This document shows, in pieces, positions 1 to 39,646 of a stretch of 39,920 bases of DNA; position 1 is the stretch's first letter, and each line of letters starts with the position of its first letter. Both the position numbers and the translations under genes were made by a program. Source of the stretch: a virus. The stretch lies in the UHGV virus genome UHGV-1299713. The stretch is one strand, 5' to 3'. A model generated the notes under the pieces. The model was given only the letters and a program-made list of their open reading frames with translations. It made no database searches and was not told where the DNA came from.

Positions 1-176
1 CTGCAGGGGACACCATTTATCAGTTCGCTCCCATCCGTACCAGTCCGCAAAATCCCCTGAATATCAAGCCTTCCTTAGATTCACAGTTCGTAATGGTTCG
101 CGTCAGATCGTTGACAGCCGCACTCCATGACGGGTAAAAAGTGGATAAAATAATTTTACCCACCGGATTTTTACCC

Positions 177-1334
177 ATGCTCACCGTTAAGCAGATTGAA
201 GCAGCAAAGCCGAAAGAAAAACCATACCGCCTTCTCGATGGTAATGGCCTGTACCTTTATGTTCCTGTATCCGGGAAAAAGGTATGGCAGCTTCGCTACA
301 AGATTGACGGTAAGGAGAAAATCCTGACCGTAGGAAAATATCCGCTAATGACTTTGCAGGAGGCAAGGGATAAAGCATGGACCGCGAGGAAAGACATCTC
401 GGTTGGCATCGATCCGGTAAAAGCGAAAAAGGCTTCGTCTAACAACAATTCATTTAGTGCGATTTACAAGGAATGGTACGAGCACAAGAAGCAAGTCTGG
501 TCAGTAGGCTATGCAACTGAACTTGCCAAAATGTTTGATGACGACATTTTACCCATCATCGGCGGTCTTGAGATTCAGGATATTGAGCCGATGCAACTGT
601 TGGAAGTAATCCGCAGATTTGAAGATCGCGGCGCAATGGAGCGAGCCAACAAAGCACGCAGAAGATGCGGCGAGGTTTTCCGTTACGCTATTGTCACTGG
701 TAGGGCTAAATATAACCCGGCACCTGACCTTGCTGACGCCATGAAGGGATACCGCAAGAAGAACTTCCCGTTTCTTCCTGCAGACCAGATCCCTGCATTC
801 AACAAAGCACTGGCAACATTTTCAGGAAGCATCGTATCGCTCATTGCGACTAAAGTTTTGCGCTACACAGCCCTAAGAACGAAAGAGCTTCGCTCCATGC
901 TATGGAAGAACGTCGATTTTGAAAACAGGATTATCACCATCGACGCCAGTGTGATGAAGGGTCGAAAAATTCATGTGGTTCCTATGTCAGACCAGGTGAT
1001 TGAACTTCTCACTACGCTAAGCTCAATCACTAAACCAGTGTCAGAGTTTGTTTTTGCCGGGCGCAACGATAAGAAGAAGCCAATTTGCGAGAACGCTGTA
1101 CTGCTTGTGATCAAACAAATCGGCTATGAAGGTCTGGAAAGCGGTCACGGATTCAGGCATGAATTCAGCACGATTATGAACGAGCACGAATGGCCTGCTG
1201 ACGCTATTGAAGTGCAACTGGCACATGCCAACGGCGGATCTGTGCGCGGAATTTACAACCATGCTCAGTATCTCGATAAGCGCAGAGAAATGATGCAGTG
1301 GTGGGCGGACTGGCTTGATGAAAAGGTGGAGTAA
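177..1334 (+). CDS. int: Tyrosine integrase, P4-like family (ATG at 177; the ORF track starts at an upstream GTG at 141)
   Basis: N-terminus MLTVKQIEAAKPKEKPYRLLDGNGLYLYV is typical of P4-type integrase arm-binding domains; C-terminal catalytic region present; transcribed from the xis side toward an AT-rich putative att region. Confidence 0.85.
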   Translation: MLTVKQIEAAKPKEKPYRLLDGNGLYLYVPVSGKKVWQLRYKIDGKEKILTVGKYPLMTLQEARDKAWTARKDISVGIDPVKAKKASSNNNSFSAIYKEWYEHKKQVWSVGYATELAKMFDDDILPIIGGLEIQDIEPMQLLEVIRRFEDRGAMERANKARRRCGEVFRYAIVTGRAKYNPAPDLADAMKGYRKKNFPFLPADQIPAFNKALATFSGSIVSLIATKVLRYTALRTKELRSMLWKNVDFENRIITIDASVMKGRKIHVVPMSDQVIELLTTLSSITKPVSEFVFAGRNDKKKPICENAVLLVIKQIGYEGLESGHGFRHEFSTIMNEHEWPADAIEVQLAHANGGSVRGIYNHAQYLDKRREMMQWWADWLDEKVE

Positions 1335-1510
1335 TCCACCTTAACTATCGAATATCACAAAGCCTTGCAATCTAGTGCAAAACTTTGTGTAAGATCATCT
1401 TGTTGTTTTAATTAACAAATAAATTATTTTGATTTTAGCAATCAAAATAAAATGTTAACAATAATGCACAAAAAAATCACTTGCAATTTAATTGTAACAG
1501 CAAATGTTCT

Positions 1511-3406
1511 TTACAATATTCTAACTTCACCGTATACGCTCAATATTTTATCAGGAACAAGGTCGCTTCTACCTTTAATTTGAACATATGGCAAATCATC
1601 AGTATTTAATTCCAAATTTGTAGAAAAGAACACTCCTCCACCACTCTGGATTGAGCTACTAAATTCAAAGAACTCACCAGACATGAATAATCCTTTCAGT
1701 CTTACACTTCCAGACTGATGGTTTACAACTATGTTCACACTTAATGTCTCAACTGCATTATGAATTGCAGATGTCTTTAGTAACAATGTTGAATTACCAA
1801 AATCTATCCACTCAAACCCATATTCACCATCAAGACCACCTGAAAATTTACCAGCATAATTACCAGTTAATATAGAGTTGACGACATTTCCGCTAACTCC
1901 ATTTATTTTCTTCCTCTGGTCTATTCTGTGATTAACTCCAAAATAACCTTCAGGAACAATTAAATCTCTGGTACTAGAAGCAACAGAGTCATAAAATTCA
2001 ACCCTTACACCATGACCATAAGTGTTTTCCTTTGTTTTTAATATCCTCCCAATGTTATCAGCATTTTCAAACCTGTTACTTCCAGAAATAAATATTTCAC
2101 TAGCTGGCGTATCTGCATACCCAACAAAAAACATTGAGTCCTTAGAGATAAAATTCACATAGTTATTTTCAAGTAATGATGAAAATACATAACTACCAAA
2201 ATAAACACCAACATCATCGACATTTTCGATGTATGAGTTACATAATTTGAAATCATAAACAGCGGCATTAAATTGTATGCCAACAGTGCAACCTTCAACA
2301 GAAATACCATCCATTACAAGCGATGTTACAGGCCCATCAAATCTATATTGCATTTGGGCATTTGTTGCAATCAGTCTTGTGAATTCGTTTAAATTATGCG
2401 CACCGCTAAAAACAAATCTATCTCCCAAATATTCCTGCGGATATTCAAAAACAATATTATCCAATTTAAGGTAGTAGTTATTGTGTGAGTGAATACCAAA
2501 TGATGAGCAATTACAAAATATATTTTTAATCTCACACCCATGATGCCAGTCTTGAATCCTTAGACAGGCTGAACTCAACCTATTATTATCTGTGCTTGAT
2601 ATAATAGAGAAATTTGATAATGAGATATACTTACTGTAATGTGAATCATCACTAGAACCAAAGTTGCTTACAAGCATACCGTTATCATTATAATATCCAC
2701 TCTCAAAAAGAGTAATATCTGAAAGCATGTTGAATACGCAACCGCATCCATCTATAATTTTTTGCTTTGCCCTCTCAAATGTTTCATCGAAATTTTGAGG
2801 TATAATTAATGTTTTTTTTATGCCATATACCTTACCTGGAACTCCAATTATTTTTTTGTTGCTATTAAATGCCTCTTTTATTCCTGCTTGAATGTAGTCA
2901 GAGCAGTCAATATCTGATGTATTCCCATTAATGTCTGGCGGTATGAAATCATCAAAAGAAAGTGTTTCCCTTAATTTAATTAATGATGTCGTGCCTTTTG
3001 CATTGTTTTCACTCTGAATGAATCCTATATATTTTGAACCATCGTTTCCAGACAATCTTTCTTCAAGCTGATCAGGGTCATACTTCAGCACATTTGGGAA
3101 TTTGAACTGCTGCGCACCGTACGCATCATAAACAGCCATGGAATGGCCTTGCACAGTTACGAACTTGGCAATCTGTCCGTTATATACCGGATATCCGGCA
3201 GCGTTAATAATGATTGGTTGCGAAACAGGAACGTGAGAGCCGTCTTCGTTCTCCACATAAACCTGAATCTGGTTTTCAGGGTTTACCGGGTCAGTGTCAA
3301 TTTTACCGATATAAATTTTACCATTGGCTACGGCTTTAAAAGAACGAGCCATAGTGAAGAGTTGCGAAGGCATGCTTACCACAACATTTGCGGTGATATC
3401 TGACAT
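1511..3406 (-). CDS. Tailspike protein with P22 gp9-like head-binding N-terminus and a divergent receptor-binding body (start at [13 protein letters not shown] 3406, GGAG 7 nt upstream)
   Basis: First ~120 aa closely resemble the P22/HK620-type tailspike head-binding domain; the remaining ~500 aa are unrelated to the P22 sequence and the DNA is visibly AT-rich. Confidence 0.85.
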
Positions 3407-3527
3407 TTCATTGCTCCAGACGAATGATATGATGCAACCATGATGTGATTGCATACCGAAATGGTACTATTGAGTATTTATCCAGTAGGTTACGATGCCA
3501 TTCCACCCAACTGGTGAGGCATCAAGG

Positions 3528-3794
3528 ATGTACAGCAAATACGACGAGGCGCAGTTTCACTTGAGACTTCCGCATGAACTCCACGCGAAAATTAAACAGC
3601 GTGCGAAGATGAATAACAGATCGCTGAACTCAGAGATAATTGCAGCGATTGAAGAATCATTGGCTAAACAAAGCTCTGCATCCGTTTACATTGACGATGC
3701 AGAGCGTATGGCAGAGCAACAATCTGATATGGTTAAGAAAATTGTTTTTGAAACGCTTAAGACCATGTATAGCAATAATAAAAAGGAAACATAG
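3528..3794 (+). CDS. mnt: Mnt-like ribbon-helix-helix repressor
   Basis: Resembles P22 Mnt as recalled (RMP-EV--KLK-RA--NGRSMNSE, C-terminal DAERLAEQQSDMVKKIVFETLK); ATG 3528 with upstream GAGG; no arc or ant genes nearby. Confidence 0.7.
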   Translation: MYSKYDEAQFHLRLPHELHAKIKQRAKMNNRSLNSEIIAAIEESLAKQSSASVYIDDAERMAEQQSDMVKKIVFETLKTMYSNNKKET

Positions 3795-3864
3795 AAATCT
3801 AGTTTCCGGCTAAAATGGCATTGCCTTCATGATATCCTGTGAAAAACTAAGGAGAGTTAACCAT

Positions 3865-4350
3865 ATGAAAAAATCACTGTTAATTATCCCTCTTCTGCTG
3901 GTTGGATGCGCAAAAGTAAGTGACTATCAAGCAAGTTGCGAGCAACGCTATCAAAAGCTTAGCGATATGGCTAATTGCCTTGATGCCAGCGTGAAGAACG
4001 ACTCACGCATGGCATCAGCACCAACACCTAAGCTGTATGTCCTTGCTGCAAAGATGCTCGGGCAAGGCGTCGATGAAGGCAAGATAAGTGACGCACAGGC
4101 AAGACTTGAGCTTCAGAATCTTTATGTTCAATTACAAAGCCAAGAACAAGCCCAACAAATAGCACAAAGCCAAGCATTCCAGCAGGCTTTATTGAATTAT
4201 CAGGCTGTAAACACAATGCAAGCGATCGAGCAAAAAGCGCGCCAGCCTGTTATAACTCAACCTTACCCAACACGCGTTGACACATATACAAACTGCAATT
4301 CAGGATTTGGAAACACGGTAACATGCAACAGTAGCAGTAGCATCAGATAA
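3865..4350 (+). CDS. Predicted lipoprotein, function unknown (candidate superinfection exclusion or moron protein)
   Basis: Signal peptide with lipobox MKKSLLIIPLLLVGC; AAGGAGAG RBS 8 nt upstream of ATG 3865; Gln-rich helical middle; Cys/Ser-rich tail. Confidence 0.7.
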   Translation: MKKSLLIIPLLLVGCAKVSDYQASCEQRYQKLSDMANCLDASVKNDSRMASAPTPKLYVLAAKMLGQGVDEGKISDAQARLELQNLYVQLQSQEQAQQIAQSQAFQQALLNYQAVNTMQAIEQKARQPVITQPYPTRVDTYTNCNSGFGNTVTCNSSSSIR

Positions 4351-4440
4351 CAATCAGCAAAGGTATCGCCTATGCAGAGGGATACGATAAACCTCGCGTT
4401 CTACATATTTGGTTTTTGCACGTTCCTGGTGTTTGAAAGG

Positions 4441-6438
4441 CTATTCTGACAACGAATCAGACTTCGCACCCTGCGTCAGTGCATTAATCGCTTTTTGCGC
4501 TTGCTGCATGGCTTTCTCAAACGCTGTCGATCCGCGTGGGGTGTTTGCCATTCGGAGCATTGCATTTCTGAATGGCTCGCTCTCATAGGCGCGAGTAAGA
4601 AGTCCGTAGCTTACTGCTGCGCCAGTTGTCGCCGGGTTCATTGCCGTCCCATACCCAATAATGAACGGGATGGTTTGCTGCCCTGTTGGTGTTGTTACTG
4701 CTGCTTTTGCAGCCTGCTGCGTGGATTGCAGGTAGTTTTTCAATCCTTTCAGATAAGCGGCTTCCTGACCTTTAAATGTGATGCCAGTCTGGTTTTGCAG
4801 GATATTAAGCTGCCGAAGGAACTGGTCAGGGGATCCGCCAGATTTCTCCATCGCCTTTCCAATGATGCCATTGCGCATTTGCGCCCTGCCAACACGACCA
4901 ACTGAGTTATACAGAGTCTTAATTTCCGATTTGTTCTTGCTGAATAGCATGTTGTTGACAACTTCTGGCGTCAGATCGCCTTTCATGAGAACATTCTTCA
5001 GCCTGGTATTCTTGAGTTTCGCTGCTTCGTCAGCATAGACGGCATTGGCCTGCTGATATTTACGGAGAGTATCGTTGCCAAGATTCTGACCAATGGCACC
5101 ATTGATATCGTCGGTCATTGCCTTGTAAACGCGCTGAATGGCAGCATCGGAACGGTTTGGTAACACTGGTCGCTCACCCTTCACGTCCATTCTGAACTGG
5201 CTGCGCAGGTCGCTTAATTGCTTCAAATCCAGATTTACAGGACCATCAGGACCAGCATTGCGAACAAGCTCATCACGATAGGACTGAAGTTTTGAAATAG
5301 TCTCGTTATCAGCGACCTTACCAAGCTTCTGCAGGTTAGATATTTCTGTATCAATCTGCTGAATTGCTCGCGCAGGCTGAATGTTTACTCCAGCCATAGC
5401 ATGCTGAACCTGCTCCAGTCGATTACCGGCGGCACGACGAATTCCTGATGTTTTCGCTTTAAGGCTGTCAATAACAACCGCTGGATCATACTCACCGAAT
5501 TTATCAGCAAATCTCTGAACCAACTGGCTTCTCGCTTCCTGTTGCGTTGCTCTCATTCCGCTTGTGCCAGCCAGAGGGATATTTTCTGCTATAGTCTGCG
5601 CCATTTTTCCGACGCGGGAAGTTGGTTGTAACAGGTCTGTGGTGTGCAGAGGAGTTCCTTCACGCTCTGCAAATCTGATAGCCTGCTGCGCTTCTGGCGC
5701 GATAGCACCACGAACGCCACGATAAGCAGCACCTAATCCACGTCCAGCAGCGTTAATAGCACCGCCAGCAAGTACACCAACGCCTAAATCGGTGGCGAGT
5801 GCTTCCGCATCATCTTTCGCACTATTTGCAGCAAGTGATCCAACTGCGTTTTCTGCTAGAAGGCGAGTCGCCCCCTGAGCAATTCGACCAGCAAGTGTTG
5901 GTGCCTGTACTGCCGCTCTCTCAACACCAGCAGGAGTGAGGTAAGGCAATGCTTCAGCAAATACCCTTCCCTCTGTCGTTTGTGGAGTCAGCGCGCCTTG
6001 CTGAAGGCCAAAGTCCTGCTCTAATCCCTGCGTTGTTACTCGTGGTGCTGGTTGATATGTGCCATCGCCAATACCGAGTTTACCTCCGGCCCATGCCGCT
6101 GCGCTTGTTACAGCATCGGCAACTGATGCAGGTATGTTTGCCACGTTCACGCCAGCCTGCACCAGTCCGCGACCAGTCTCTTTTACTGCTTCGCCAAGAT
6201 CAGACATAAATCTACTTTGCTGTGGTTGTTGCTGTGCTACTGGTTGCTGTGTCTCCACTTGCTGCACAGATGGCAATGGATAGGCAGCATAGAAAGCTTG
6301 CTTAGCCTGCTCTGCATTTTCTCCGGCTTGCGGGGCCACGACTTCATTGAAGTATTGCTCCTGAGCCTGCGCTTTTTGTTCTGGTGCTAACGCCTGATAC
6401 TGTGGAGAGGCGATAACATCTTTCCATGCTTTAGCCAT
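4441..6438 (-). CDS. Ejection (DNA transfer) protein, P22 gp16 homolog
   Basis: Position last in the P22-order ejection protein set 7-20-16; 665 aa; Ala/Gln-rich. Confidence 0.8.
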   Translation of the reverse strand: MAKAWKDVIASPQYQALAPEQKAQAQEQYFNEVVAPQAGENAEQAKQAFYAAYPLPSVQQVETQQPVAQQQPQQSRFMSDLGEAVKETGRGLVQAGVNVANIPASVADAVTSAAAWAGGKLGIGDGTYQPAPRVTTQGLEQDFGLQQGALTPQTTEGRVFAEALPYLTPAGVERAAVQAPTLAGRIAQGATRLLAENAVGSLAANSAKDDAEALATDLGVGVLAGGAINAAGRGLGAAYRGVRGAIAPEAQQAIRFAEREGTPLHTTDLLQPTSRVGKMAQTIAENIPLAGTSGMRATQQEARSQLVQRFADKFGEYDPAVVIDSLKAKTSGIRRAAGNRLEQVQHAMAGVNIQPARAIQQIDTEISNLQKLGKVADNETISKLQSYRDELVRNAGPDGPVNLDLKQLSDLRSQFRMDVKGERPVLPNRSDAAIQRVYKAMTDDINGAIGQNLGNDTLRKYQQANAVYADEAAKLKNTRLKNVLMKGDLTPEVVNNMLFSKNKSEIKTLYNSVGRVGRAQMRNGIIGKAMEKSGGSPDQFLRQLNILQNQTGITFKGQEAAYLKGLKNYLQSTQQAAKAAVTTPTGQQTIPFIIGYGTAMNPATTGAAVSYGLLTRAYESEPFRNAMLRMANTPRGSTAFEKAMQQAQKAINALTQGAKSDSLSE

Positions 6439-7826
6439 TAATCACCCCATAGTGAAGAAAAGTTACTGCTGGCTGCTGGCTGTGATACCTGTGCAGGTTG
6501 AGATTGCTGCCGCTGAGATTTACCAACATTAACGTTATATTGTTGGTTGTAATTGTTGGTGTATTCCTGAATCTCACGAATCGACTGCTGCATAGCCTCC
6601 GGGCTTGAATAGTCAACCTGCGGCATCCCCTGAAAATACATCTTCGCTTCTGCAACGGTGTTAATACCACTGGCACCCATGTCCCTTGCTGCCGCCACAC
6701 CCTGATTCTGCATTCTGCCCTGAATACGTTGTGCTGAGTTATATAACTGGCGCTGCTCTTTTCCTGTTAATCGGCTGCGAACATCAGCACCAATTGCTGG
6801 ATTACCTGCACCGCCTGTCATTCCTGTCATGAAATCGAGAGCAGAAGCGTCTGCATTTGCGATCGCGTCGATATCCTTCTTCATTGCATAGTTTTGTGCT
6901 GATGCAGACGATGTTGCAGGCGCTGCGATTGAACTGGCAGGAACGCGAACCATATTCCCCTCGTTGTCGATGCCTTCGTAGAACGCATTTGCCCCAGCGC
7001 CGTGAAGTTTCCCGCCTACCGTTACAGTTCTGCCATCTGATAACTGAACTGTACGCTCATCATTCCCAGCAGTTCCTCTTGTTGACGCTCGCTGCATTGC
7101 CAAATCCTGCCCGCGTCGCGCAGTAGAAGCAGATAAGTCCTGACCGCGCATCGTGATGTTCTGACCTCGTGCTGTTAGCGCCTCTCCAGCCTGATTGCTG
7201 CGGATTGTCTCTGCCAGCCTGCCTCGGTCAATTTCACGACCAGCCATCTTATCCTGAACATTGAAGTAATCAATCGGACCAAGAGCAGCCATCCCAAGGT
7301 GATCAACAAACTCACCAAATCCTGAAGGATTCTGCTGATACATCTGAGCAACGCTGTTAGGGTCAACACCGACGCGAGTCAGTTCCTTGGCGTTGTTTTG
7401 CAGCCATGATTGCATTGCTTCTGGAGACGATGACGCAAGGCGTGCGCCAGCCGCTAAGGTGCCGATAGAATTACGCTGATCTTCATCAATGAATCCCATG
7501 CCTTTACGAACGGATTCAATCTGGTCTGGATATTGAGTAGCCAACTGACGCAAAGCACCGCGATCACCAGACGCATAAGCATTAGCGTACGCCTGCTGAA
7601 ATTCTTTCTGCCGCTGAGCCTGCTTTTCCTGCTGAAACACCCCTGCAATACCTGAAAGGCCTTGCAAAGCAGTCAGCCCAACATTGTTAGCGCCTGAACG
7701 CTCAATATCATTGTTCTGCCTGATAAGCTGAAGCGTATTGCCGATGTCATTTACGCTCGGAGCGTTTGAGTTGACGCCGCCGATACCAGCCAACAATCCG
7801 CCGTTTGTTCCTTGCCAAGTAGCCAT
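6438..7826 (-). CDS. Ejection protein, P22 gp20 homolog
   Basis: Synteny and size (462 aa vs about 471 in P22). Confidence 0.8.
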
Positions 7827-7835
7827 GATTACCCC

Positions 7836-8528
7836 TTAAAACAACGAGCCAAGCAATCCGATACCAGCACCAATGCCAGCGCCCCAAGGCGTTGATGTTC
7901 CCAAAAGGCTGGCAAGACCTGCACCGGCAATCGCACCAGACGTGCCGCCGCTAATTGCAGTCTGAAGACTTGATGGTTTATTGGCATTTGCAGCGGCAAG
8001 AGCTGCGCTTTGCTGTGCAATGCTGCTCATGTTGTTGGCGTACGTCTGCCCGGCGTTTGCCTGACCTTGCAGAGCACCAAGCCCAACGTTTGCCAGATTG
8101 TTGTAATTGCTCATCTGGTTTGATAACCAAGACTGACCGAGTGTCGGCGCGATCGTAGCCAGTTGATTGCTTGTGGCTGTCGAACCAAGTCCTCCCGTAG
8201 CCTCCGCAGCAGCAAGACTCTGGTAACGCGCCTGACCTGCGAGGTCTTTATACTGCTGAGAGTTGTAATACTGATTAAGTGCCTGCCCCTGACCTTCTAA
8301 ACTGGAAAGGTTCTGAAGCTGGTTAACATACTGCTCCGCAAGAGGCGTGAACGGAGCAAGGTTTTTCATGATCGTCTGCCACTGCTGATTTTGCAGGTCT
8401 GCGGCATACTTCTGAGCTTCTGCTGCATACTTTGCGCTTTTATCAGAGCTGCCACCTTTCCCGCCTTTTTCAGGGCAATAAGGTTCCTCGCCGCGCAGTT
8501 TTCTGCCCAGCTTAAATGCATATAACAT
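7836..8528 (-). CDS. Ejection protein, P22 gp7 homolog
   Basis: Synteny and size (230 aa); N-terminus MLYAFKLGRKLRGEE. Confidence 0.8.
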   Translation of the reverse strand: MLYAFKLGRKLRGEEPYCPEKGGKGGSSDKSAKYAAEAQKYAADLQNQQWQTIMKNLAPFTPLAEQYVNQLQNLSSLEGQGQALNQYYNSQQYKDLAGQARYQSLAAAEATGGLGSTATSNQLATIAPTLGQSWLSNQMSNYNNLANVGLGALQGQANAGQTYANNMSSIAQQSAALAAANANKPSSLQTAISGGTSGAIAGAGLASLLGTSTPWGAGIGAGIGLLGSLF

Positions 8529-8530
8529 GG

Positions 8531-8989
8531 CTATCTCCCGTGATTCAGGAAGTCGGTTAGTTCTTCGCGTGTGGCGCTGTAAAAAGTCACGTCATCCACG
8601 CCTTTGAAGTATTTCTTGATGGTTCCTACACGCTTAAGGCCAATCATTGCGCAGTACATCTGACCGTGGCGGAATTTGCGTGCGGCGAACGATGTGACGC
8701 ACTGAACGGTGGTGTTAGTCAGAATGTATCGCCAGAACGCCAGCCCGATTTCCTTGCTGAAGCCACGAACCTCTGGCAGGTACATGGCGTGGCAATCGAA
8801 TGTAAGCGGCTGAATCTCCTGATAGTAAACAATGCCGCCAAACTGACCGTGCACGTTAACCTCAAAGTAACGGCATTCAGGCTTGTAGTCGTATCCATCA
8901 CCGTTGTTGCTACCGGCGATAATGTCAGGGTGATTTCCGACTGCTTCGATCAGGTCGATGTTTCGCGTTTGTTTGAACTGAATCATCAC
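8531..8989 (-). CDS. Tail/ejection accessory protein, P22 gp14 homolog
   Basis: Synteny between the tail needle and gp7; 4-nt ATGA overlap with the upstream gene. Confidence 0.7.
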
Positions 8990-9834
8990 TGCTCCGCGAT
9001 TATCTTGATGGTTGTGGCAGTAAACGCCGCACCATTTGACTGGATGGTTAACGTACTGCCATTTGTGGCAAGAAAGCCGTCTTTATCCACGCTGAAGAAC
9101 GTAGCTAACAGGATGTTGTCGGTTGTTGTCGCCGAGTTGCGACTGCTTACCAGAGTGTCAGGAACAGAGCCGGAAAAGGTTAGCTGCATTGACCTGTTGG
9201 AGGTTCCGCTGGGCCACGTCCCGACGATCGACAGCTTGAATAACAGGGTTTTGTTCTCGTTGAACACAACCATCTTGTTGTTAACGGTGTCGAAGAATGG
9301 TGCCAACGAGCCGGATGACGGCGTGAGCGTTTTCAGCAGGCTAACAAGGTTGGTCGGCGCTGTCGGAATGGTTACAGATACGCCAGAGTAAACAACCTCT
9401 GACTTTTTGCGAGTAGTGGCATACTCCAGAGCATCAATGCGCGTTTCATGGTCTGAAAGCGTGTTTTGAATGGCGACAACTTCATCAGTCAGATAATCAA
9501 TATCGTTTTCTGCTGTCGTTAATCGCGAATCAAGGCCGACTATCGCCGCTTCTGCGTTAGTGATCCTTGTTTCGTGGTCCTGTATCTTCGCTTCAGCCGA
9601 TGCCAGTCGAATTTCGTGATCGACCAGAATCACATCCTGCTCATCGTTCCTGACTTGTGCGTCATAAGCGCCCTGTCCGGCCTCGTTGGCCTTGTTCGCC
9701 ACGTTACCAACATCAGTACCCTGTGCGATAACGTACAGCAGATATGACTGCGAGAAGATATTGCGTGGAAGGACTGATGTGTCGAGCCGCGTAGCTTGGA
9801 TGATTACCGGCACATTGAGATTCGAATCAGCCAT
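8986..9834 (-). CDS. Tail needle (P22 gp26 homolog) with extended C-terminal knob, Sf6/HK620 type
   Basis: N-terminus [43 protein letters not shown] closely matches P22 gp26; 282 aa rather than 233, consistent with a knob-bearing needle. Confidence 0.85.
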
Positions 9835-11252
9835 TACTCGATCCTTATCTGGCAGCCTGACAGAGTGACAGGTGACTTAGTGATAACACGCAATTTGAAG
9901 CCGACATTTTTCCTGATGCGCCCAACTCGCTTCCACAAAACGCGTTTGTCGTAAACGAACGGTTCATTCTGCTCAATCATCTGCTCACGACCGTAATTTA
10001 TGCCGTCAGTGGTTGCAGAGAGAAAAAGGCGGTCGGCGTACTGAGCAACGCCAGTTGAAGATTCAACTTCAAGGTCGAAAACTCTGGCGTTATCCGCTTT
10101 GAACAGAGGAGTAAACAGCAGATGTTCCTGTTGCTTGTCGTACTGGCTGCTGATATCGAATTGCAATTTCCCGGTCACGGACTCCAGCTTATCGCCGCAC
10201 GTTATCTGATTGCCTTCGTAAATGAAGTCGATAGCGCGGTACACATCATCATACAGTCCTGTTTTCAGCACACACCATTGCGGACCATTGGCGCTTGAAG
10301 ATGCGTCGTACACGAGAACATGGCGCGGAAGGTGGATAATCAGCAACTCATGAGCATCAAAGCGCAACGATTCCATCACGCCATCAGCCAGTTCATCAGC
10401 AGTGTAGGAGCGAAGGATTTTCTCAATGCTCGCGCTGGCGATTGGTGATACCTGACCGGAGCCGATGATATACACAGACGGCGCACCCGTTGCCGGATTG
10501 CTGATGAACGCATACGAATCAGCGAATGGTGTTTTGCAGTAAGTCCCGGCAATACCTTTTTGCACCATCAGCGATGGCTGTGCGACATATAAAGCGGCAC
10601 CAACAGTGGTTGCGCTAGTCAGGGAGAAATATTCAATCGTCGATGAACCAAAGCAGACGATGAAGTCTCGCCATGTACCTATGCCGATGATTCCGTCAGG
10701 CTGAGACTCGGCACGATATTGTGCACTGTAGCGGTCAGGATGCGATTCGTCTTCAAGGTCAGTGATAAACCATGAATCAGTACCGTCTTTTGACCACGCA
10801 TAACGCCCACGTAAGCGCGTAATGTCACGGACCGAACCTAACTCATACTGCGTGAATCCGCTGTCTGTAGGCCAGTTTGAGACGGTTTTAACCGTGCCAT
10901 CATAGCGGTATTCGACCAGTTGACCATTAACGCCTACCGCCTGTGATGTTCTACCATGCGCCATTGATACGCGACCACTTCCGGCAACATCACCGACCTC
11001 ACTTTCTCCTTTGTACAGCTTGCCACCACATACGCGATAAACAGCATTCTGCGCCATGTTGTACTCGACGCCGCGCGATACACCATTCACATCAGAACGT
11101 TTGGCAATGCCCGGGAATGAGCGAAGATATCCGCTGCTGTTGAGTATTTCTTTGGGTGTAGCCAACATATTCACTGGCAGATAGTCGATATAGTCAGCGT
11201 TTCTAAAGTCTTTGCCGACACCTTTCATAAGCGGAAGTTGCTGAATCGGCAT
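9834..11252 (-). CDS. Tail hub protein, P22 gp10 homolog
   Basis: 472 aa, correct synteny. Confidence 0.85.
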
Positions 11253-11752
11253 TATTCGCTCCCGTTATCGCAAGGTTCCTTTCGCTGGAAGTAATTCCAA
11301 CAGTTCCACTTCGCCAACTGGTTACCACTACCAACAGGCATACGGTTTGGATAACCGGACTTACATTTAGCGGCTTTTGCTCTGTCCATTGCAGACAGTT
11401 TTACGAGTCGCTCTTTCCCGTATCTGGCAGTGGTTATAAGTTTTGCAGACGCTTCCAGCGCATAATCTGGAGCAATGCGGCAGGCAAGGTTGAAAATGAC
11501 GGCATTTATAGCGTTATTTGATAAGCCGTGCTCATCGCCAGGATCTGGAGCGACATCTGCATCAGCAAAAATGTAGCCAACGTTGATCCCAGGTGACACA
11601 TCACCGCCAAGCCATTCAGCCATCATCATTTCAAGGTCGTTGACGCCATCTTCCATGGACTGCGGTTCGACATCGGTTAACGTGGCATTTGATGCCACAC
11701 CGAGCTTACGTAATGCCGCAAGAACTAAATCACCCTTCGTTGTCAGGTTCAT
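11252..11752 (-). CDS. Head-to-tail adaptor, P22 gp4 homolog (start at [10 protein letters not shown], not the longer ORF)
   Basis: [43 protein letters not shown] matches P22 gp4; 166 aa. Confidence 0.85.
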
Positions 11753-12323
11753 CTGCTGCCGCCTTAGGTTTTCGACCAGGCTTTTTACGCTGTTTTTCTT
11801 CTGGCTCTGGCTCTGCAATAGCCGGACGCAAACTCAGGAGTCGTCCAAGAACATCATTTGCTTCATGACCATCCCACTCTTTCCCGAACTCAAGCTCAGT
11901 ACCTTCAGGAAGGAACTCGATTTCTTCAACAGGTAGGTGATAAGTGATTTCGCCTTCTGGAGTGGTGATACCAGCAATGATCCAGCCATCCCACTCTTCA
12001 CCGTCACTGTGTTTGCGAGACCACCACGAAAGCTCAGCGTAAGCATGCATCAGCGATGAGAAGAGGCGCACTCGGTGAGCGTAAAGCTCGTTAAAAGTGT
12101 GATAACCGTCGGACACTTCGCCCATATCAACTGGGGAAGTTTCACCTCCGCCAACACTCCCAATTTGATCACCAACAAGAGGATCATCAGGAACATCGTC
12201 AGGGTGCTTATACCAGCCATTTGCTAAGTGCACAGCTACATCATCAGGATCAACGGTTTTCGTTTTCAGCTTGCGTCCCCAGATTTTGGTATCTCCGCCA
12301 GCCTGAAAAATCATTACGCTCAT
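11730..12323 (-). CDS. Hypothetical protein between coat and gp4 (acidic body, basic Pro/Lys-rich tail)
   Basis: ATG at 12323 with GGAG 6 nt upstream; the ORF-track N-terminal extension overlaps the coat gene and is probably not translated. Confidence 0.6.
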
Positions 12324-12366
12324 TGGTATCTCCAATAGAAAAGGGAGCCGAAGCTCCCTCTGGTTA

Positions 12367-13662
12367 TCACGCGGTCTGGTTAGGCAGACCAACACCAATT
12401 GCCTCTGGTCGTACAGCACATGCTGAATACCACACAGCAATACGGCACTTACCAGACAGAGTGTTGATATCACCCTGCGTTGCGAAGATGCCGTTAACAC
12501 CAATGCCAGGAATGCTGAAGGAAGACGTTTTCATGCCAGCAAACAGTTCATGGGTTACCGGGATCGGCTGAGACAGCAGACGGATTGAGTCATCAGCCCA
12601 GAACACGTTAGCGGTGGTTGTTGCCACGTTCAGAACGTTTACCGGAGTGGTATCAGCAAGAGAGGTGTTTACGTTAGCGTAAGCCTTCTCTTCTTTTGTC
12701 AGTGACGCGTCATCCAGTGCAATCGGTTTCGGTGTGATTTCGATGTGAGTACCATCGATCACACGGGTGATTGAGAAAGTCGCATCATCAGTTAGCACGT
12801 TCTTCGCCATCTGAGACAGGAATTTCACACCAGTGAAGCTGATTTTGTCGCCGCGCTTAAACCCGGTGGTGGAGGATACGGTCACCGTTGCAACACGGTT
12901 GTCAACGTTCTCTTTGTTACCATCGGTATCAAGGGTGTATGCCTGCGGCTTAAACTTCTGCGCACCAGACACAGTTACACCAGTAGCGGTTGACTTGGTA
13001 ACTGCCGGAAGTTTCGGTGAGCGAAGAATTTCATCAAAGCCAGCAATCTGACGCTGAATAGTACCGTTGCGATACGCTTCTTCAGGAACGCGCCCAAAGA
13101 TGTCACCATCTACCAGGTTGCGGCCTGCTTTGCGGTAATCGTCAGGGTTCAGGAAGTAACTGATGCCCATATCGCGGTTTAGCTCACGGGAGAACATCAG
13201 GCGCTCTGCATCAGACACAAAATCCCAGCCAGACAGGCCAGTAGATGAACCAATTGCGCGGGTATCGTGAACAACAAGCGAGCCCATTTCAGTTGCCTGT
13301 TTGGCAATCGCTGACTCAATGTTATTCGCCAGTTTTTTGGCGGATGCCTGGATGCGGCGACGGTAAGAACGCTCATCACGCAGGTCATCTGCACGAAGCT
13401 CGAAAAAATCGTTATCCGGATCGCCCATGTTGCATTTCACGGAGAGTTCCAGAATCCCGGTTGCGTTGCCAGTTAAATCCCAACCAGTCTGGGTTGGCGC
13501 TTCCTGCTCAACAGGCATCCACACGGTGTTGCTTGAACGCTGCATGGATTCTGCCGGAGGGGTGTATTTTGTCACTTTGGACGCCATTGGCGTCAGGTTC
13601 TGGACGGTTTCGATGATTTCATCCAGAGCATACGTGACCAGTTGACCTTCATTTAATGCCAT
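12367..13662 (-). CDS. Major capsid (coat) protein, P22 gp5 homolog
   Basis: 431 aa; [20 protein letters not shown] and long stretches match P22 coat as recalled. Confidence 0.9.
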
Positions 13663-14573
13663 TATCGAATTCCTTTATTCAGTTGCGCCTTGAGCTTGCG
13701 GTATGTCTCTACATCCCCTTTGTTTGCTGCCGCTTCCATCTGCTTTTCAATCGCAGATATATTTGCAGCAACAGCGTGTCCCTGAATGGGTTCATCAGGT
13801 AGCGGGGCTTCTGAAACAGGTTTGGCTCGAGGCTTGAGAGTTAAACGTTCTGACAGTCGAGTGAGTTCAATCAGCGCGGATTGCCCGTCCATCGCCAGCA
13901 ACTGGCGTGTTTTCTCAGGATTAGCACCAAGGTGATACATGAGAGCGGCGGATTTCTCCGGGAAGAGGCGCATGATGTCGGCACCGACTGCTGGCGGCAC
14001 CAGTTGCATGAATGCATCCTCTTTCTCCTGATAGTCAGGGATATTGAGCTTTTCCGCTGCGTCGTAGTGCTTACGGGCTGCCTCGACGTATTGCGCTGAT
14101 TGCTGGGTGAACTCCTGAGTTTTGCGACCCTGCTCGGCGACAGCCTGGCTTCGTGCGTCCATAGCCTTGATCTGCCATTCACTGTTTGCCTGCTGGAAGG
14201 CAGCCAGTGCGCGGCTCTGGTCATAGTCGTACTTAGCCAGCGCATCTTCGGAAAGATAATCGTTAGGGTCTGGTTGTTTTGGTAACTCAGGGTTCACCCG
14301 CAGGTGCTCCGGCAATTCTCCACGCTTAACCGCTTCCATCTGCTGCTCAAGCTCACGCTGGCGTTTGCGTTCGATGCGGCGACGGGCAAATTCAGCATTA
14401 GTTGCCGGGTCTTGTTTTGGTTTCTCATCGTCTTTCAGGACAATCTCAAAGCCTTCTTCCTGACCTGCGCTGTCGTTGGCATTATCGACAACTAAGCCAT
14501 CAGCAGATGCCGCTGCATGATTGCCGGGCAGGGTTAATTCTTCAGAAGCCTGAATGTCGGTGGTTTGGTCCAT
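13662..14573 (-). CDS. Scaffolding protein, P22 gp8 homolog
   Basis: 303 aa, charged helical protein, correct synteny. Confidence 0.85.
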
Positions 14574-14586
14574 GATTAACTCTCTC

Positions 14587-16752
14587 TTATTGAGGTGTCT
14601 CGGCTACTCCGCCGGAGGGGATTTGAACTTGACGCATAAGATTCGCGAAATCCATGCGTTGTGAATGAGTCTGGTCTGCATCTTTAAGAAGCAGCTCAGC
14701 GTTAGCACGAGCATCTTTGCTGCGCTGTTGCTGGAATTGACCTACGAGCTTGAGGTACTCACGCAGTTCTGCCTGCTTGTCGAGGTCCATATTGTTGAAT
14801 ATTTCTGCAATCTTCGCGGCGTTGAGTTGGTTTTGGGCTTCAACCTTGGCAGCTTCAACCTGAATCTGCGCCTGTTGGTTCTCTGCCTTGAGCAATTCAG
14901 CCTGACCTTGCAGAAGGATACCCTGCGCCTGAATTTGCTCTGCTGATGGCTGCTGCGGCTGTTGTTGTGCCTGCTGCACCATCTCCATCTCTTCAGGTGT
15001 TTCTGGTTTCTTCAGCCCCATCATCACCAGTTGCTTGTTCGCGTACTCTCGCATCATCTCGACGCCTTTACCGTCAAGCAGCGTGAAGTATTGCAGCATC
15101 AGCATCTGGAACTCTGGAGTACCTTGCGGAACCTTGGTGAGTAACTCCTGAATCTCTGCGCGGTTCTGTTCCTTCATACTCTGGAAGGATGGTCCAACGT
15201 CTGTATAGCACTCATAGCGACCGCGAATGTCGTTGAGTGTGACCACATTGCCAGACTGGTAATCTACAACTTGCGCATAGAGTTGAATGTCTTTCTCGCT
15301 TCCATCTTCAAGTGTCAGCGTTACATGACGAGGAACGTCATAAATATCGTTGACCATTGAGGCATAAATCTCGCCATCACGTCGCATTGCGGTAGCCAGG
15401 TTATCCTGAAACACGTATGTCTCAAGGTCTGCCCGCATGTTCAGTTGATTGACGGTATCGAAAGCGACCTGAGAGTTTGCTGCCTGCGCATCCACGCCAA
15501 GACTAGCCACCTCTTTCACTGCGTTGGTGGCTGCCTCAAGCATGTAAGCGTTGGCTTGCGGCACTTCAGGGTTTTCCATGTAGGAGATTGGACCAATCGG
15601 CAGGTCGTTACCGTTTTCATCGGTCCTGTTCTGCAGATAGTACGGATAGTCGTCATTTCCACCGTACATGTATTCGTAGCCTTCTATTTGCTCAGGGAAG
15701 AAGGTCGGTTTCTTCTTCGGTGACCGAGCAACAATATCGGCGTTGAATGACATGATCATGTTACGAAGGCGTTGGCCGTCTTTCGTCAGCCTTACCACGC
15801 CTTCGTAGCACTCCTTGTCACCAGCAAATGACCATTCGCCATACACTGGAACGATTGGGATATGCTCTCCGGCTATCTTCTCTCGGTCTTTCAGTATCTG
15901 CGTGCAGGTGATGATCGACTTATACACACGCCGACGCTTCACCTTGCGCTCTGCTACCTTAATGAATCCACGATTAGCCAGGTCGTCGATAACGTCTTTA
16001 ATATCCTGCTGGTAATAGCTGACCGGCTCACCTGTCAGCGGGTCGCGATAGATGAAGACTTTCTCTTTCTTCTCTTCGACCTCGTAATACTCAGCGACGT
16101 AGACGACATCATTCGATACCCACGGAAACAGCCATGTATCGTTCGGATTCTGGAAAGATGGCAAGGCGTCCGGATCAATACCGTAATCCTCTGCGAACTC
16201 TTTCCAGCCATTGCGCGACAAGGCGTTAATCACCGTGCAATGCTTAGCGTCGCTCTTATCCATCTGCTTGCTGTTGGCGTCCCATATGACGTGTGAGCAG
16301 GCTTCATGGATTGGAAGGCGTCGGATTACCTGATTGTTGCTTGTTGGGTCGTTGTCTTCGTACTGCGTGACCAGACGCCATGCACCAACGCCAGACTCTA
16401 TCTGCTCACGAACGCCAACGTTAACGGCAATCTTTGCCGTGTTATGGCGCATATCAGTACGGTACATCCCCATCAACACATCGGCTGCATCAGGATTAGC
16501 ACCGTCTTTTGGTCGGAAGAGAACGTCGATAGGGTTCCGGCGCATCTCTGCGACCAGTTTCCTGACCACCGGGCGAACAACATCGAATTGTCCGCGATAT
16601 TGCAGGGTGGTGTAGTTTGATAGCCAGTCATCCCATTGCGACACTCGGCTAAAATACAGGTCATTTGTCGCCTCGGTTCTGGCTTCATCGCTCGCCATCC
16701 AGTCTGCGTCAAACTTACACAGAATGGAATTGAGTCTGTTTTCGTCGGCCAT
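14587..16752 (-). CDS. Portal protein, P22 gp1 homolog
   Basis: 721 aa, correct synteny, Gln-rich C-terminal barrel region. Confidence 0.9.
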
Positions 16753-18252
16753 TTAAGTTCTCCGTGCGATGGGCCTGATTGGGGCTGGTATCTTTTTCTC
16801 TTTTGGTTTTTTGATGTCGCGCATCATTTTTGCGAAGCGGCGCATCATGTATGCATAGCGAACGGCTGAGAGAACGTCGTCGTTAAGCTTGACGATTTTC
16901 CCGTTTTCATCACGGTGGTAGAGGCGGAACTCCTCAAAGAATGGCTCACAGGTGTTGAATACTTTGAAGCGACCATCGAGCATCATGTCGCGCAATTCAG
17001 TGATGCCAGGCTCAACAGCATTACCGCCATCAGGCCATGTCGCATGCTCCTGTAACATCATAAATCCAGCGTCTGCATACTGCCCTTTGAGCTGCTCACC
17101 GCCGCCCTTCTCATGCTGGTTTCCGTCATGAGGCCATGCTGTTGGCACTTTATGCGCCCATGATTTAACCGCTCCCCATGCCTGAACGGCTGTTTTTTCT
17201 TTCGCCTTCCACACGCGTGAAACGTAGATTGTGTCTGCGTCCTTATCCCACCAAAGCTGAACCTGCGCCTGAGGGTGATCCCATCCGAAATCCATCCCGC
17301 CAATTACGTAGAAGTGATCAGGACACTCGAACGGCTGGCACTTAATCGTCTCTTCCGGTATCTGGAAGATTCGACCGCTACCCATCGTAGGAATACCGCG
17401 AGCACGCGCCTCTCTCTCATGCTCGGGATAGGATGCGATGATTTGCTCTTTCTGCTCGTCGGTGTAGTGCTCAGCGTCATAGATGGTCATGTTGACCACT
17501 TTCTGAGACTTGCTGGGATTCTTCAGGAACTTGGTAACAACGTCAGACATCCCCATCAGCGGGGTAAACGTCAGAATTGAGAATTGCCCGTATTTGTTGG
17601 TACGGGTAAGACCTTCGCCATAAATGCTGTATGGTGGTTCTTCGTCAAACCACACGCCATGGATTGTGTCACCCTGCCAGCGAGCGCGGCCTTGCGAGTA
17701 TGGCTTGAAGTAGCAGATTGAAATGCCATCTTCAACGCCATCAGCCGTGTGATGCTTAACCAGAAGATGATCAACAAGGTTCGGAAAGAAAGGAGACTTC
17801 TTCCAGCTAATGATGTCCTCTTTCGGTATGGAGCCGTAGCCAGGCTCATCATTCTCTTCGATACGACCGCACAGGATGCGTTGAGTCGTTTTGGTTACAG
17901 TCTCGTTTGTCTCTCCACCAATCCAGAAGACAACAGGCTCATAGAAACGCTTACCTTTCCACTCCCCGCCATATTTACCATCAGCCGGATAGCCTTTTGT
18001 TCCCGGATAACGCCCGGTAAGGTGAAACGCGACTTCAGCAGCACCAGTAAATGACTTACCAAGCTGGTTACCAGCCATAAAACATCGCTCTGGATAGTCA
18101 TGTCCGGCGTCGATGAACTCACGCTGTTTGCTGTATGGCGTAAATTCATATAGCAGGTGTGTGTTCCGGTAGTTCTCTTCTTCTTCGAGTAGTTCGAGCA
18201 ATTCGATTTGCTCTTCGTCGCTCAGGTTATCAAGAATCGCGTCCAGTTCCAC
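16753..18252 (-). CDS. terL: Terminase large subunit, P22 gp2 homolog
   Basis: 499 aa, correct synteny. Confidence 0.9.
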
Positions 18253-18718
18253 GGTTGAATAGCTCCTTGATACGAGAGCGCCGCTTATCGCGATCTCCCT
18301 TATCAGGTGTCACGTCTTCAACTTGCGACTGCTCTTTGAGGCCCAAATCACGGGCGATGATGTTAGCGTTGAGAAGGTCAGCGGCTGCGCCAGAGAATTT
18401 CTGGTCGTAGATGACCTGTTCTGCTCGCGTAACGACTTCAGATAAATCTTCTCGCAGGCGATATGTGCGCCATGTTTCAAGCGTCACATCAATGAACAGA
18501 GTGAGGCCGGTAATGGTCATCGCTCGCATCTTGGCGATAGGCTCTTGTATCACTTCACCCTGATACGAGAACGCCTTCATCTCCCATAGCGGGTTAGCTT
18601 CCACCCACTCGAAGTATTCACAACAAGCAGCCCACAGCGCCTCAGGCGATTCGAATTTCGGGTTTCGCCCATGACTACTGCGGGCCTCCCAAAATCGGTT
18701 GCCCTTTGGTGCTGCCAT
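18230..18718 (-). CDS. terS: Terminase small subunit, P22 gp3 homolog
   Basis: 162 aa; contains a pac-like sequence. Confidence 0.85.
18430..18451 (-). promoter_or_regulatory. pac: Candidate pac site for headful packaging
   Basis: Minus-strand GAAGATTTATCTGAAGTCGTTA inside terS; 20 of 22 matches to the P22 pac sequence as I recall it. Confidence 0.5.
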
Positions 18719-18747
18719 ATTAATCTCACTTAATCGTTATTTCAGGT

Positions 18748-18918
18748 TGAGGACTCTTTCGCGCCTTCAATCAGTGACTGCTTCAGCAATTCGAGTGTGC
18801 CAATCGCCTCGCATAAACTGATTTCACCATCGTAATCATGGATAACGATTTCCAGCCGCTCGTATAGCTCTTGAGTAATTGGGAATTTCTTCTCCTTACC
18901 AAGATCAACGATGCTTGT
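18748..18918 (-). CDS. Small hypothetical protein (about 57 aa), below the ORF-track size cutoff
   Basis: ATG-initiated ORF read by eye between terS and the next gene; acidic. Confidence 0.3.
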
Positions 18919-18930
18919 CATAGAGGATTC

Positions 18931-19218
18931 CTATAATTTTGAATATCCAGACTCAAATACCTCAGCAGGAGAATATGATTCATATCCATCCTCATAGACA
19001 ACGTAATAGCCTCCAGACATTGGTCGGTGCTTACAGATATATTCCGCGCTAACATCAAATGCTGCGTATTTCTTATCATCCGGATGAATAATTGCCCCAT
19101 AACTAGAAGAGCCAGTCTTACCAGACTGATCTGGGTTTGGCTTATGTTCTATAGAGCCAATCTTCAGGGCGCGAACTTTTTTGTGGCACTGGTATCTCGG
19201 CATTTCTTGTTCAGTCAT
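18931..19218 (-). CDS. Hypothetical protein
   Basis: 95-aa ORF packed between small genes upstream of terS. Confidence 0.5.
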   Translation of the reverse strand: MTEQEMPRYQCHKKVRALKIGSIEHKPNPDQSGKTGSSSYGAIIHPDDKKYAAFDVSAEYICKHRPMSGGYYVVYEDGYESYSPAEVFESGYSKL

Positions 19219-19221
19219 CTC

Positions 19222-19464
19222 TTACACTCCGGTGGTGAACAGGTCTAACGCTTCCTTCGATTTACGCACCGCTTCGATAGTGCGGGTCGTGATATCTGAA
19301 TTAGCGCCACCTGACTGGAAGTGAATTTTGAATAGCTCAAGCTTCAGCTCGTCAGTGCCAATGAACTGAAATGCTTCCTCTGCGGCTGCGTTCTGGTTCA
19401 TGACCAGTTTGTAAATCTCTAACTGGAATTTCTGTTCTTCAGTCATGGGAATAATCTCTGCCAT
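19222..19464 (-). CDS. Hypothetical protein
   Basis: 80-aa ORF; AACGGAGCC upstream of the ATG. Confidence 0.5.
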   Translation of the reverse strand: MAEIIPMTEEQKFQLEIYKLVMNQNAAAEEAFQFIGTDELKLELFKIHFQSGGANSDITTRTIEAVRKSKEALDLFTTGV

Positions 19465-19564
19465 TGTTGGCTCCGTTTATCCGTTAAAAGGGATATCAGT
19501 TAAGTTATCCCGGGTATAAGCCATTATCAAAGCCACTCTGTAGGGAATGGCTTTTGTGATGGCA

Positions 19565-19590
19565 ATAAAAAAGGCCGCCTGAGCGACCTG
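19565..19590 (-). terminator. Rho-independent terminator (AGGUCGC-UCAG-GCGGCCU stem-loop with one G-U pair, then U6)
   Basis: Read directly from the sequence immediately downstream of the 19599..19784 ORF. Confidence 0.5.
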
Positions 19591-19598
19591 TTAGTTGT

Positions 19599-19784
19599 TC
19601 ACAACTTCCATTGAAGGTCCAGCATGTCGAAAAATGATCCGCATTTAGGGGGATTTTCCATTCTTGCCATCTCTTCAGCCGCTTTGTAATAAGCCATTGG
19701 CCTTTTCACACCATCAGCACCAGTGATGTATTCAACGCCTTCCTTCGGATCTTTGTTCACGGAAACCATCGCAACCTCTTCCAC
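19599..19784 (-). CDS. Small hypothetical protein (a shorter ATG start at MVSVNKD is possible)
   Basis: ORF directly followed by the terminator. Confidence 0.4.
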   Translation of the reverse strand: MEEVAMVSVNKDPKEGVEYITGADGVKRPMAYYKAAEEMARMENPPKCGSFFDMLDLQWKL

Positions 19785-20055
19785 TTGTTCATCATCGATT
19801 CAGCGGATGTCTTTCCATCAGTCCGCCACCACAAAGAATCTTTTTTGCCATAAGGCAGGAGGTTCATCTTTCAGTGGCTGCCAGTGTTATTTCCCCACTT
19901 ACTGGCTTGGGTTGCTTCGTGGTACTGCCGTAACTGGTGGTGCACAGATTTAGTTAAATCTGTTCTCGCCTGAACTATCTTTTACATACCCGGATTGTGG
20001 GGATGTAAATCACGGTTTCATTATCAAGCCCACCCGTAGATGGGCTTTGGAATGG

Positions 20056-39525: not shown

Positions 39526-39526
39526 C

Positions 39527-39555: not shown

Positions 39556-39646
39556 ATCAAGATATCCAGACCTACCATCGGCGCATCAATGCGGTTTTTT
39601 TATTACCTGATTTGCAGGTTCGATTCCCTATTCGGAGATAGCACTC

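Follow-up and report, generated by a model that had tools for sequence, protein, structure and literature searches.

The joined ends of a P22-like phage genome very probably form attP and the self-repressed integrase promoter of the argW recombination module

The stretch of viral DNA analyzed here (UHGV virus genome UHGV-1299713; 39,920 bp, referred to below as the window) starts shortly upstream of an integrase gene, int, and ends shortly downstream of an excisionase gene, xis. This raises the question of what the sequence between the two genes represents once the ends are joined. An initial annotation, made without database searches, had proposed either a phage attachment site (attP) with arm-type sites or an autoregulated int promoter, located in a region of ~250 bp that is flanked by repeats. 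Between the stop codon of xis (39847) and the ATG of int (177), the joined interval measured 249 bp, as anticipated, and it was collinear with the uninterrupted sequence of phage HK620. We are highly confident that the joined ends constitute attP together with the self-repressed integrase promoter of the argW recombination module known from KplE1, HK620, and Sf6. The two halves of the earlier proposal apply at once, as reflected in the att core, the repeat annotations of HK620, and the P' sites of KplE1. The region is another copy of a known, experimentally characterized, and published module and is nothing new in itself. Its order was rebuilt as pI - xis (torI) - P arm - core - P' arm/PintS - int, with the following features.

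39600 to 39646, + strand: left edge of the recombination module, with the putative cII-activated "phage integration" promoter pI of HK620 and its cII box, placed by alignment to the HK620 annotation
39603 to 39606 (TTAC) and 39612 to 39615 (TTGC), + strand: cII box, upstream of xis
39647 to 39847, + strand: xis, recombination directionality factor (RDF) of 66 codons, identical to TorI (KplE1), HkaC (HK620), and gp18 (Sf6)
39842 to 39850 and 39854 to 39862, + strand: predicted arm-type Int sites of the P arm, two direct copies of GGGTAAAAT at 12-bp spacing, equivalent to the HK620 "attP" repeat_region at 1421 to 1443 of L001
39898 to 39904, + strand: CCCCTGC, part of the left AATCCCCTG copy and inverted complement of GCAGGGG in the core (window 3 to 9), 18 nt apart
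1 to 16, + strand: att core CTGCAGGGGACACCAT, crossover region, equal to the 3' terminus of argW, a gene for tRNA-Arg(CCU)
19 to 111, + strand: predicted TorI binding blocks of the P' arm, at ~19 to 46 and ~82 to 109, taken from KplE1 (PMC2951348)
23 to 27, + strand: I1, predicted TorI pentamer GTTCG
43 to 47, + strand: I2, predicted TorI pentamer GTCCG
86 to 90, + strand: I3, predicted TorI pentamer GTTCG
96 to 100, + strand: I4, predicted TorI pentamer GTTCG, which together with I5 abuts the -35 box
106 to 110, + strand: I5, predicted TorI pentamer GATCG, which together with I4 abuts the -35 box
111 to 147, + strand: PintS, putative integrase promoter used in the prophage, identical in sequence to that of KplE1
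111 to 116, + strand: -35 box of PintS, TTGACA, 100% conserved in relatives
135 to 140, + strand: -10 box of PintS, TAAAAA, overlapped by P'1
~146/147, + strand: probable transcription start of PintS, transferred from KplE1
132 to 140, + strand: P'1, GGGTAAAAA, predicted arm-type Int site over the -10 box
143 to 151, + strand: P'2, GGATAAAAT, a degenerate fourth P' copy
154 to 161 and 169 to 176, inverted: P'3 and P'4, TTTTACCC, the second abutting the int ATG at 177
177 to 1334, + strand: int, IntS-type heterobivalent tyrosine integrase of 385 amino acids, from Pfam domains and identity with IntS

The first 16 bp of the window did not differ from the attP core annotated in HK620 and Sf6 or from the core of Escherichia coli K-12; the "attP core" of HK620 (AF335538, 1368 to 1383) and the window share the sequence CTGCAGGGGACACCAT. 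In K-12, KplE1 resides in argW and is flanked by a duplication of this 16-nt core (PMC2951348). A search for a tRNA 3' end matching a stretch of 15 to 40 bp, suggested by the initial annotation as a check, therefore succeeded: window 1 to 16 is the 3' end of argW. Neither ARAGORN nor Rfam found a tRNA or other RNA in the window, the 16-nt tRNA fragment being too short for both programs. The core, its tRNA target, the TorI sites, and the fourth P' site had not been recognized in the initial annotation.

The position of the crossover was assessed with a junction query, in which window 39500 to 39920 was joined to window 1 to 400, searched in 5,426 complete E. coli genomes. Matches were obtained in 1,954 of them, at a median of two places per genome. 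On the xis side, the match extended over torI from query position 1 (or 28) to 436/437, corresponding to window position 15/16. The match on the int side covered query positions 422 to 821, starting from window position 1, and included intS and tRNA-Arg. The two overlapped by exactly the 16-bp core. Lysogen junctions in the 1,954 genomes thus break exactly at window 1 to 16, beside tRNA-Arg, which places the crossover in the xis-int region, as had been proposed. In UTI89 and a K-12 derivative, the layout was yfdC - tRNA-Arg - intS ... torI - dsdC. In prophage contigs from IMG/VR, the P arm and core were joined to several host sequences that differed from one another and that diverge immediately after ...GGGGACACCA. 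Site-specific integration at argW with junctions at the core was consequently found for this module both in E. coli genomes and at the attR junctions of IMG/VR contigs. Approximately 36% of complete E. coli genomes carry the argW module.

An uninterrupted torI-core-intS junction was present in 17 E. coli genomes. In E. coli ET151 (L088, 3001 to 3823) it lies within the chromosome, which indicates tandem argW prophages. Circular contigs of ~39.4 kb with the uninterrupted junction (NZ_CP081786.1 and NZ_CP081778.1, 39,448 bp) are probably excised phage genomes. The same junction occurs in the free phage genome of HK620.

The window is a complete genome of a P22-like (Lederbergvirus) temperate phage, opened exactly at the att core: its text runs from the first base of the core to the base just before the core. 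Its joined ends are attP by construction, whether the sequence derives from a virion genome or from a prophage that was cut core to core, and the prophage boundaries are exact, from core to core. Megablast against phage records matched window 1 to 1390 and 39600 to 39920 to HK620, Sf6, CUS-3, HK633, IME10, Kapi1, and others at 95 to 97% identity; matches to HK022, 434, and Stx phages ended at approximately window 39600. Over window 1300 to 20000, the closest phage was IME10, with 72% coverage and 95.5% identity. The phage is a new, otherwise unrecorded mosaic, which the findings at its ends place in the group that integrates at argW. Beyond window position ~1390, megablast returned no matching genome among the 5,426 complete E. 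coli genomes, and a lysogen of this exact phage was absent from the same set. Little new biology is added by this assignment.

The evidence obtained here consists of identity with the characterized module, the lysogen junctions, and a phylogenetic footprint. With regard to identity, the closest experimentally studied counterpart is KplE1 (CPS-53) of E. coli K-12. It has the same 16-bp core, an identical TorI, and an IntS that differs at 1 of 385 amino acids. The P' arm (window 1 to 176) matched K-12 attL at 171 of 176 nt, and the 320 nt upstream of the core, comprising xis and the P arm, matched K-12 attR at 314 of 320 nt. The arms are thus 97 to 98% identical to attL and attR of KplE1, with no mismatch in the core, the arm-type sites, the TorI pentamers, or the -35 and -10 boxes. 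The five substitutions in the P' arm all fall outside these pentamers, arm-type sites, and promoter boxes, and three substitutions in the P arm lie just left of the core (39905, 39906, and 39908). The xis-attP-int order and the TorI pentamers, -35 and -10 boxes, and arm-type sites are the same. KplE1 differs in being a 10-kb defective remnant without a repressor, whereas the window is a full-length 39.9-kb P22-like genome.

The KplE1 module is common to HK620, Sf6, and CUS-3 (PMC2951348, PMC3509656), and attP lies between int and xis in Kapi1, HK620, Sf6, and KplE1, with the same core in Kapi1 (PMC8787464). HK620 (AF335538) and Sf6 (AF547987) share with the window a contiguous attP with the same core and annotated arm repeats, the same pI and excision promoters, hkaC or gp18 in the place of xis, and the P22-like genome type. 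Int was identical at 379 of 385 amino acids in HK620 and at 382 of 385 in Sf6. Downstream of int, Sf6 carries oac; in the window, int and a tailspike gene unlike that of Sf6 are separated only by an AT-rich gap of 176 bp. The xis-attP-int layout is also that of Klebsiella phage Chronis, in which the identity block, TGCAGGGGACAC, is shorter. Among more distant systems, lambda resembles the module in its heterobivalent tyrosine integrase, its core and arm-type sites in both arms, its small DNA-bending excisionase, and its IHF requirement. In contrast to lambda, xis and int are here separated by attP, and an autoregulated promoter within the P' arm serves int. The lambda-type order, in which attP is downstream of int and the two genes are cotranscribed, was not found, since the core lies upstream of int. 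The tRNA target of satellite phage P4 is leuX, unlike that of the argW module. P4 shares with the module a tRNA 3'-end target, an int promoter overlapping an att arm, and repression of int by the integrase and the RDF, but its RDF is a different protein, Vis, which was proposed to act on int mRNA and not on DNA (PMC2951348).

The protein encoded by xis was identical to TorI, HkaC, and gp18 at 66 of 66 amino acids, and RefSeq labels the homologous gene torI. Pfam assigned no family to Xis, so that its identity derives from direct comparison with TorI, whose RDF role was shown in KplE1 (PMC3509656, PMC2951348). In Int, Pfam detected Arm-DNA-bind_3 (amino acids 2 to 86), Phage_int_M, and Phage_integrase, and 384 of its 385 amino acids were identical to K-12 IntS. 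A GTG at 141 is only the most upstream in-frame start of int and precedes the position homologous to the KplE1 transcription start.

The repeats were examined as candidate arm-type sites. The motif GGGTAAAA had 6 exact copies on both strands of the 39,920 bp, compared with 0.75 expected, and none of 100 shuffles reached 6. Copies are located at 132 to 139 (+), 154 to 161 (-), 169 to 176 (-), 547 to 554 (-), 39842 to 39849 (+), and 39854 to 39861 (+). Five of the six fall in the joined xis-int interval, and the sixth lies inside int. All repeats listed in the initial annotation exist, with coordinates that were 1 to 7 nt off. The doubled GGGTAAAAT is found at 39842 to 39850 and 39854 to 39862, not 39847 to 39868, and its first copy overlaps the xis stop codon (GGG-TAA). 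GGGTAAAAA occupies 132 to 140 rather than 131 to 139. The inverted TTTTACCC copies are at 154 to 161 and 169 to 176, and the second abuts the int ATG without the overlap with the int start that had been described. The shared 9-mer AATCCCCTG is present twice, at 51 to 59 and 39895 to 39903 instead of 50 to 58 and 39892 to 39900.

All four repeat_regions labeled "attP" in HK620 coincide exactly with the six GGGTAAAA copies, those of the P' arm corresponding to L001 1631 to 1652 and 1652 to 1677. In KplE1, TAAA forms the core of the IntS P' sites, of which P'1 extends over the -10 box of PintS (PMC2951348). By analogy with KplE1 and HK620, the GGGTAAA repeats on both arms are likely to be IntS arm-type sites; those of the P arm are assigned, as predictions, from the HK620 annotation and conservation. 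The copy inside int (547 to 554) carries an attP repeat annotation in HK620 and was rejected as an arm site: relatives have other codons for the conserved peptide D-I-L-P, of which the motif encodes I-L-P, and the match is probably fortuitous. The AATCCCCTG pair was weaker, with 0.26 copies expected and at least two in 1 of 100 shuffles. It was discarded as a repeated functional unit, given that conservation of the right copy in relatives (0.62) is that of a spacer and the left copy is kept only in CCCCTGC. Despite divergence of the P arm around it, this heptamer is retained in Chronis and IMG/VR locus L188, and CCCCTGC at 39898 to 39904 is a possible core-proximal protein site.

Similarly to the arm sites, the promoter of int could be placed by transfer from KplE1, in which the start of PintS was mapped by primer extension (PMC2951348). 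KplE1 coordinates were transferred using ATG = 2464567, which was derived from the "-223 to +64" clone. The "prophage excision" promoter annotated in HK620 covers window 111 to 160. A consensus promoter scan did not report PintS, as the scanner requires a -10 box ending in T and that of PintS ends in A; its sole match on the + strand of the region, ATGACG/AATAAT at 127 to 154, was at chance level. In KplE1, IntS represses its own gene ~5-fold, TorI represses PintS through I4/I5, and single P' mutations left the repression of PintS unrelieved (PMC2951348). The five TorI pentamers sit at their KplE1 positions in the window, as transferred through the 171/176-nt identity with K-12 attL. Negative autoregulation of int by IntS and TorI was shown for KplE1 and, given that the promoter and operator sequences are identical, would be expected here. 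Excision between attL and attR of KplE1 in vitro needs IntS, TorI, and IHF (PMC2951348). IHF-like strings were limited to AATCAATCCCCTG at 39892 to 39904 and TATCAAGCCTTCC at 62 to 74, neither of which is a full match to WATCAANNNNTTR.

To what extent these elements are maintained was evaluated outside E. coli. A genome scan with Int identified intS-like loci at 58 to 83% amino acid identity in other Enterobacterales, including Citrobacter, Dryocola, Pantoea, Edwardsiella, Rouxiella, Tatumella, Mixta, Xenorhabdus, Erwinia, Serratia, and others. In these Enterobacterales, int was downstream of tRNA-Arg(CCT) in 22 of the 24 loci checked, at a distance of ~160 nt in 20. A footprint of the core-to-ATG interval was derived from a 13-sequence alignment with 12 of these relatives, scored relative to the window. 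Columns within sites were conserved at a mean of 0.90, compared with 0.55 for spacers (Mann-Whitney P = 7e-16). The individual values were as follows.

Core: 0.94
-35 box: 1.00
P'1: 1.00
P'2: 0.70
P'3: 0.98
P'4: 0.88
TorI pentamers: 0.80 to 0.93
Spacers: 0.37 to 0.75

Next to the TorI pentamers, at 80 to 93% in the 12 relatives, the spacers at 28 to 42, 60 to 85, 91 to 95, and 101 to 105 reached only 37 to 61%. In the P arm, both GGGTAAA sites are kept in Chronis and L188, and the other P-arm sequence has diverged. Scans of viral contigs with TorI and the Chronis Xis recovered almost only identical copies and added little power to the P-arm footprint.

Lineages with 58 to 62% Int identity keep the -35 box, two direct repeats 11 bp apart, and one or two inverted repeats, which stop 2 nt short of the ATG. 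Their arm motif is GGGCAT/ATGCCC, and their upstream RDF-type repeats differ (GTAAAC, GTTACC, and TGAACC). These switched motifs were read in loci L020, L028 to L031, and L035, ~70 nt upstream of the int ATG at 1201, beside tRNA-Arg(CCT). A layout that is kept when the motif is switched is the pattern expected of protein-DNA coevolution, and the sequences are consistent with it. Related modules with switched arm motifs form a natural specificity series that could serve the engineering of integrase specificity. Furthermore, an attP with an autoregulated int promoter can be recognized by its repeat geometry from the sequence alone.

Three other explanations for the repeats were weighed against this evidence. 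The initial annotation had named the AT-rich convergent gap between int and the tailspike gene (1335 to 1510) as the alternative location of attP, which would leave the xis-int repeats with a role in regulating int only. The canonical attP of lambda and P22 is downstream of int, and the gap is indeed noncoding and AT-rich. However, ARAGORN and Rfam found neither a tRNA nor a tRNA fragment in it, host junctions are at window 1 to 16 and not in the gap, and the int-distal side runs into phage genes in every related prophage examined, namely, oac in Sf6, a tailspike and an acyltransferase gene in UTI89, and yfdGHI in KplE1. Because the homology of the conserved module ends at ~1390, the gap is a mosaic joint and moron locus and not a part of the module. 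This alternative was rejected, and we regard it as extremely improbable.

It is also very unlikely that the GGGTAAA repeats serve only as operators of an autoregulated int promoter, without a role in recombination. The overlap of P'1 with the -10 box and the repression of PintS by Int in KplE1 speak for an operator function. Yet two copies are in the P arm, across the core and ~210 bp upstream of the promoter, and in a prophage they would be ~40 kb away from it. These P-arm copies are the ones kept in Chronis and L188. Moreover, Int has a dedicated arm-binding domain, single P' mutations did not relieve the repression in KplE1, and attL and attR of KplE1 recombine in vitro with IntS, TorI, and IHF. 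The probability of a merely fortuitous occurrence of the repeats in intergenic DNA rich in A+T is smaller still and practically negligible. Both the shortness of the motif (8 nt) and the marginal standing of the 9-mer pair by itself would fit chance, but 6 copies against 0.75 expected, none of 100 shuffles at 6, and the clustering of five copies within 249 bp argue otherwise. The positions of the repeats are kept across genera while spacers drift, and in distant lineages the motif covaries.

The preferred reading, attP combined with a self-repressed integrase promoter, suggests how the module would operate in this phage, which we infer to behave as KplE1 and HK620 do. Protein binding, the transcription start, repression, and the requirement for TorI are carried over from what experiments showed for KplE1 and HK620, whose sites are nearly identical. 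The N-terminal arm-binding domain of the integrase would bind the GGGTAAA sites, two direct ones in P and two direct plus two inverted ones in P', and its catalytic domain would bind the 16-bp core. Together with IHF, Int would catalyze strand exchange between the phage core and the 3' end of argW, which is identical to it; after integration, tRNA-Arg would be restored by the core that the phage brings in. The int gene would thereby come to lie at the left prophage end beside argW, and xis at the right end. With attP situated between xis and int, integration would uncouple their transcription. In the prophage, int would be read from its own promoter (TTGACA at 111 to 116 and TAAAAA at 135 to 140) inside the P' arm. 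Repression of PintS would come from two proteins, Int at P'1, which covers the -10 box, and excisionase at the GTTCG/GATCG sites (I4/I5) adjacent to the -35 box, so that Int would be kept low and constant. Synthesis of excisionase would then trigger excision.

Upstream of xis, the first half of the cII box is TTAC in the window and in KplE1, and TTGC in HK620, Sf6, and UTI89. Activation of pI by cII may therefore be weaker or different, judging from this half-box. The same region contains TTGCAGGTTCGATTCC at 39612 to 39627, an exact 16-nt copy of the T arm of argW that in the tRNA immediately precedes the att core. Its position is within the pI/cII-box region, 11 nt inward from the left mosaic boundary of the module and 20 nt upstream of xis. 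The copy was found in HK620, Sf6, KplE1, UTI89, and ET151 and was absent from Klebsiella phage Chronis. As a recombination substrate it was dismissed: chimeric argW::16-mer::torI and pI::16-mer::core queries yielded 0 true recombinants in the 5,426 genomes, and 13 "full-length" matches consisted of two pieces ~430 bp apart, i.e., normal contiguous attP junctions. We consider it rather unlikely that the copy is more than a mere relic, be it a functional element (a B-type half-site or a GTTCG TorI site, with IntS/TorI feedback on the torI/pI promoter) or the scar of an ancestral attP with at least 31 nt of argW, into which a xis-plus-P-arm cassette was inserted.

The CUS-3 record CP000711 is bounded by this T-arm 16-mer (L003/L004, 1 to 16 and 40192 to 40207), which is labeled "attL/attR core." In UTI89 (L005, 40500 to 40970), the T-arm 16-mer is followed by torI, two GGGTAAAAT sites, and an att core that is one G shorter, CTGCAGGGACACCAT. 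CP000711 appears to be misdelimited at the look-alike 16-mer, with ends that are ~310 bp off, and it is without torI/xis and the P arm.

Two open reading frames spanning attP were evaluated by their substitutions at the three codon positions, using xis (13/3/22) for comparison. A frame resembling hkaB of HK620 and gp17 of Sf6 (39840 to 39920 plus 1 to 60, + strand) gave 14/11/9. The antisense frame at 20 to 184 (- strand), in the position of Chronis gp28, gave 13/14/11 and is lost in relatives. Since neither displayed an excess of third-position substitutions, frames across attP, including those like hkaB and Chronis gp28, were rejected and are probably not genes.

Downstream of int, the 176-bp AT-rich gap is followed by the convergent tailspike gene, which encodes 647 amino acids with a P22 head-binding domain; the receptor-binding part of the protein could not be placed. 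Megablast of the AT-rich gap and the 3' end of the tailspike gene (1391 to 1750) found no match in the 5,426 complete E. coli genomes.

Among the intS-like loci, that of Xenorhabdus hominickii (L025, ~990 to 1110) contained, between RDF-type sites 2 and 3 of the P' arm, ~8 tandem copies of the 10-mer AAATCCCTTA. These repeats lengthen the P' arm of X. hominickii by ~70 bp.
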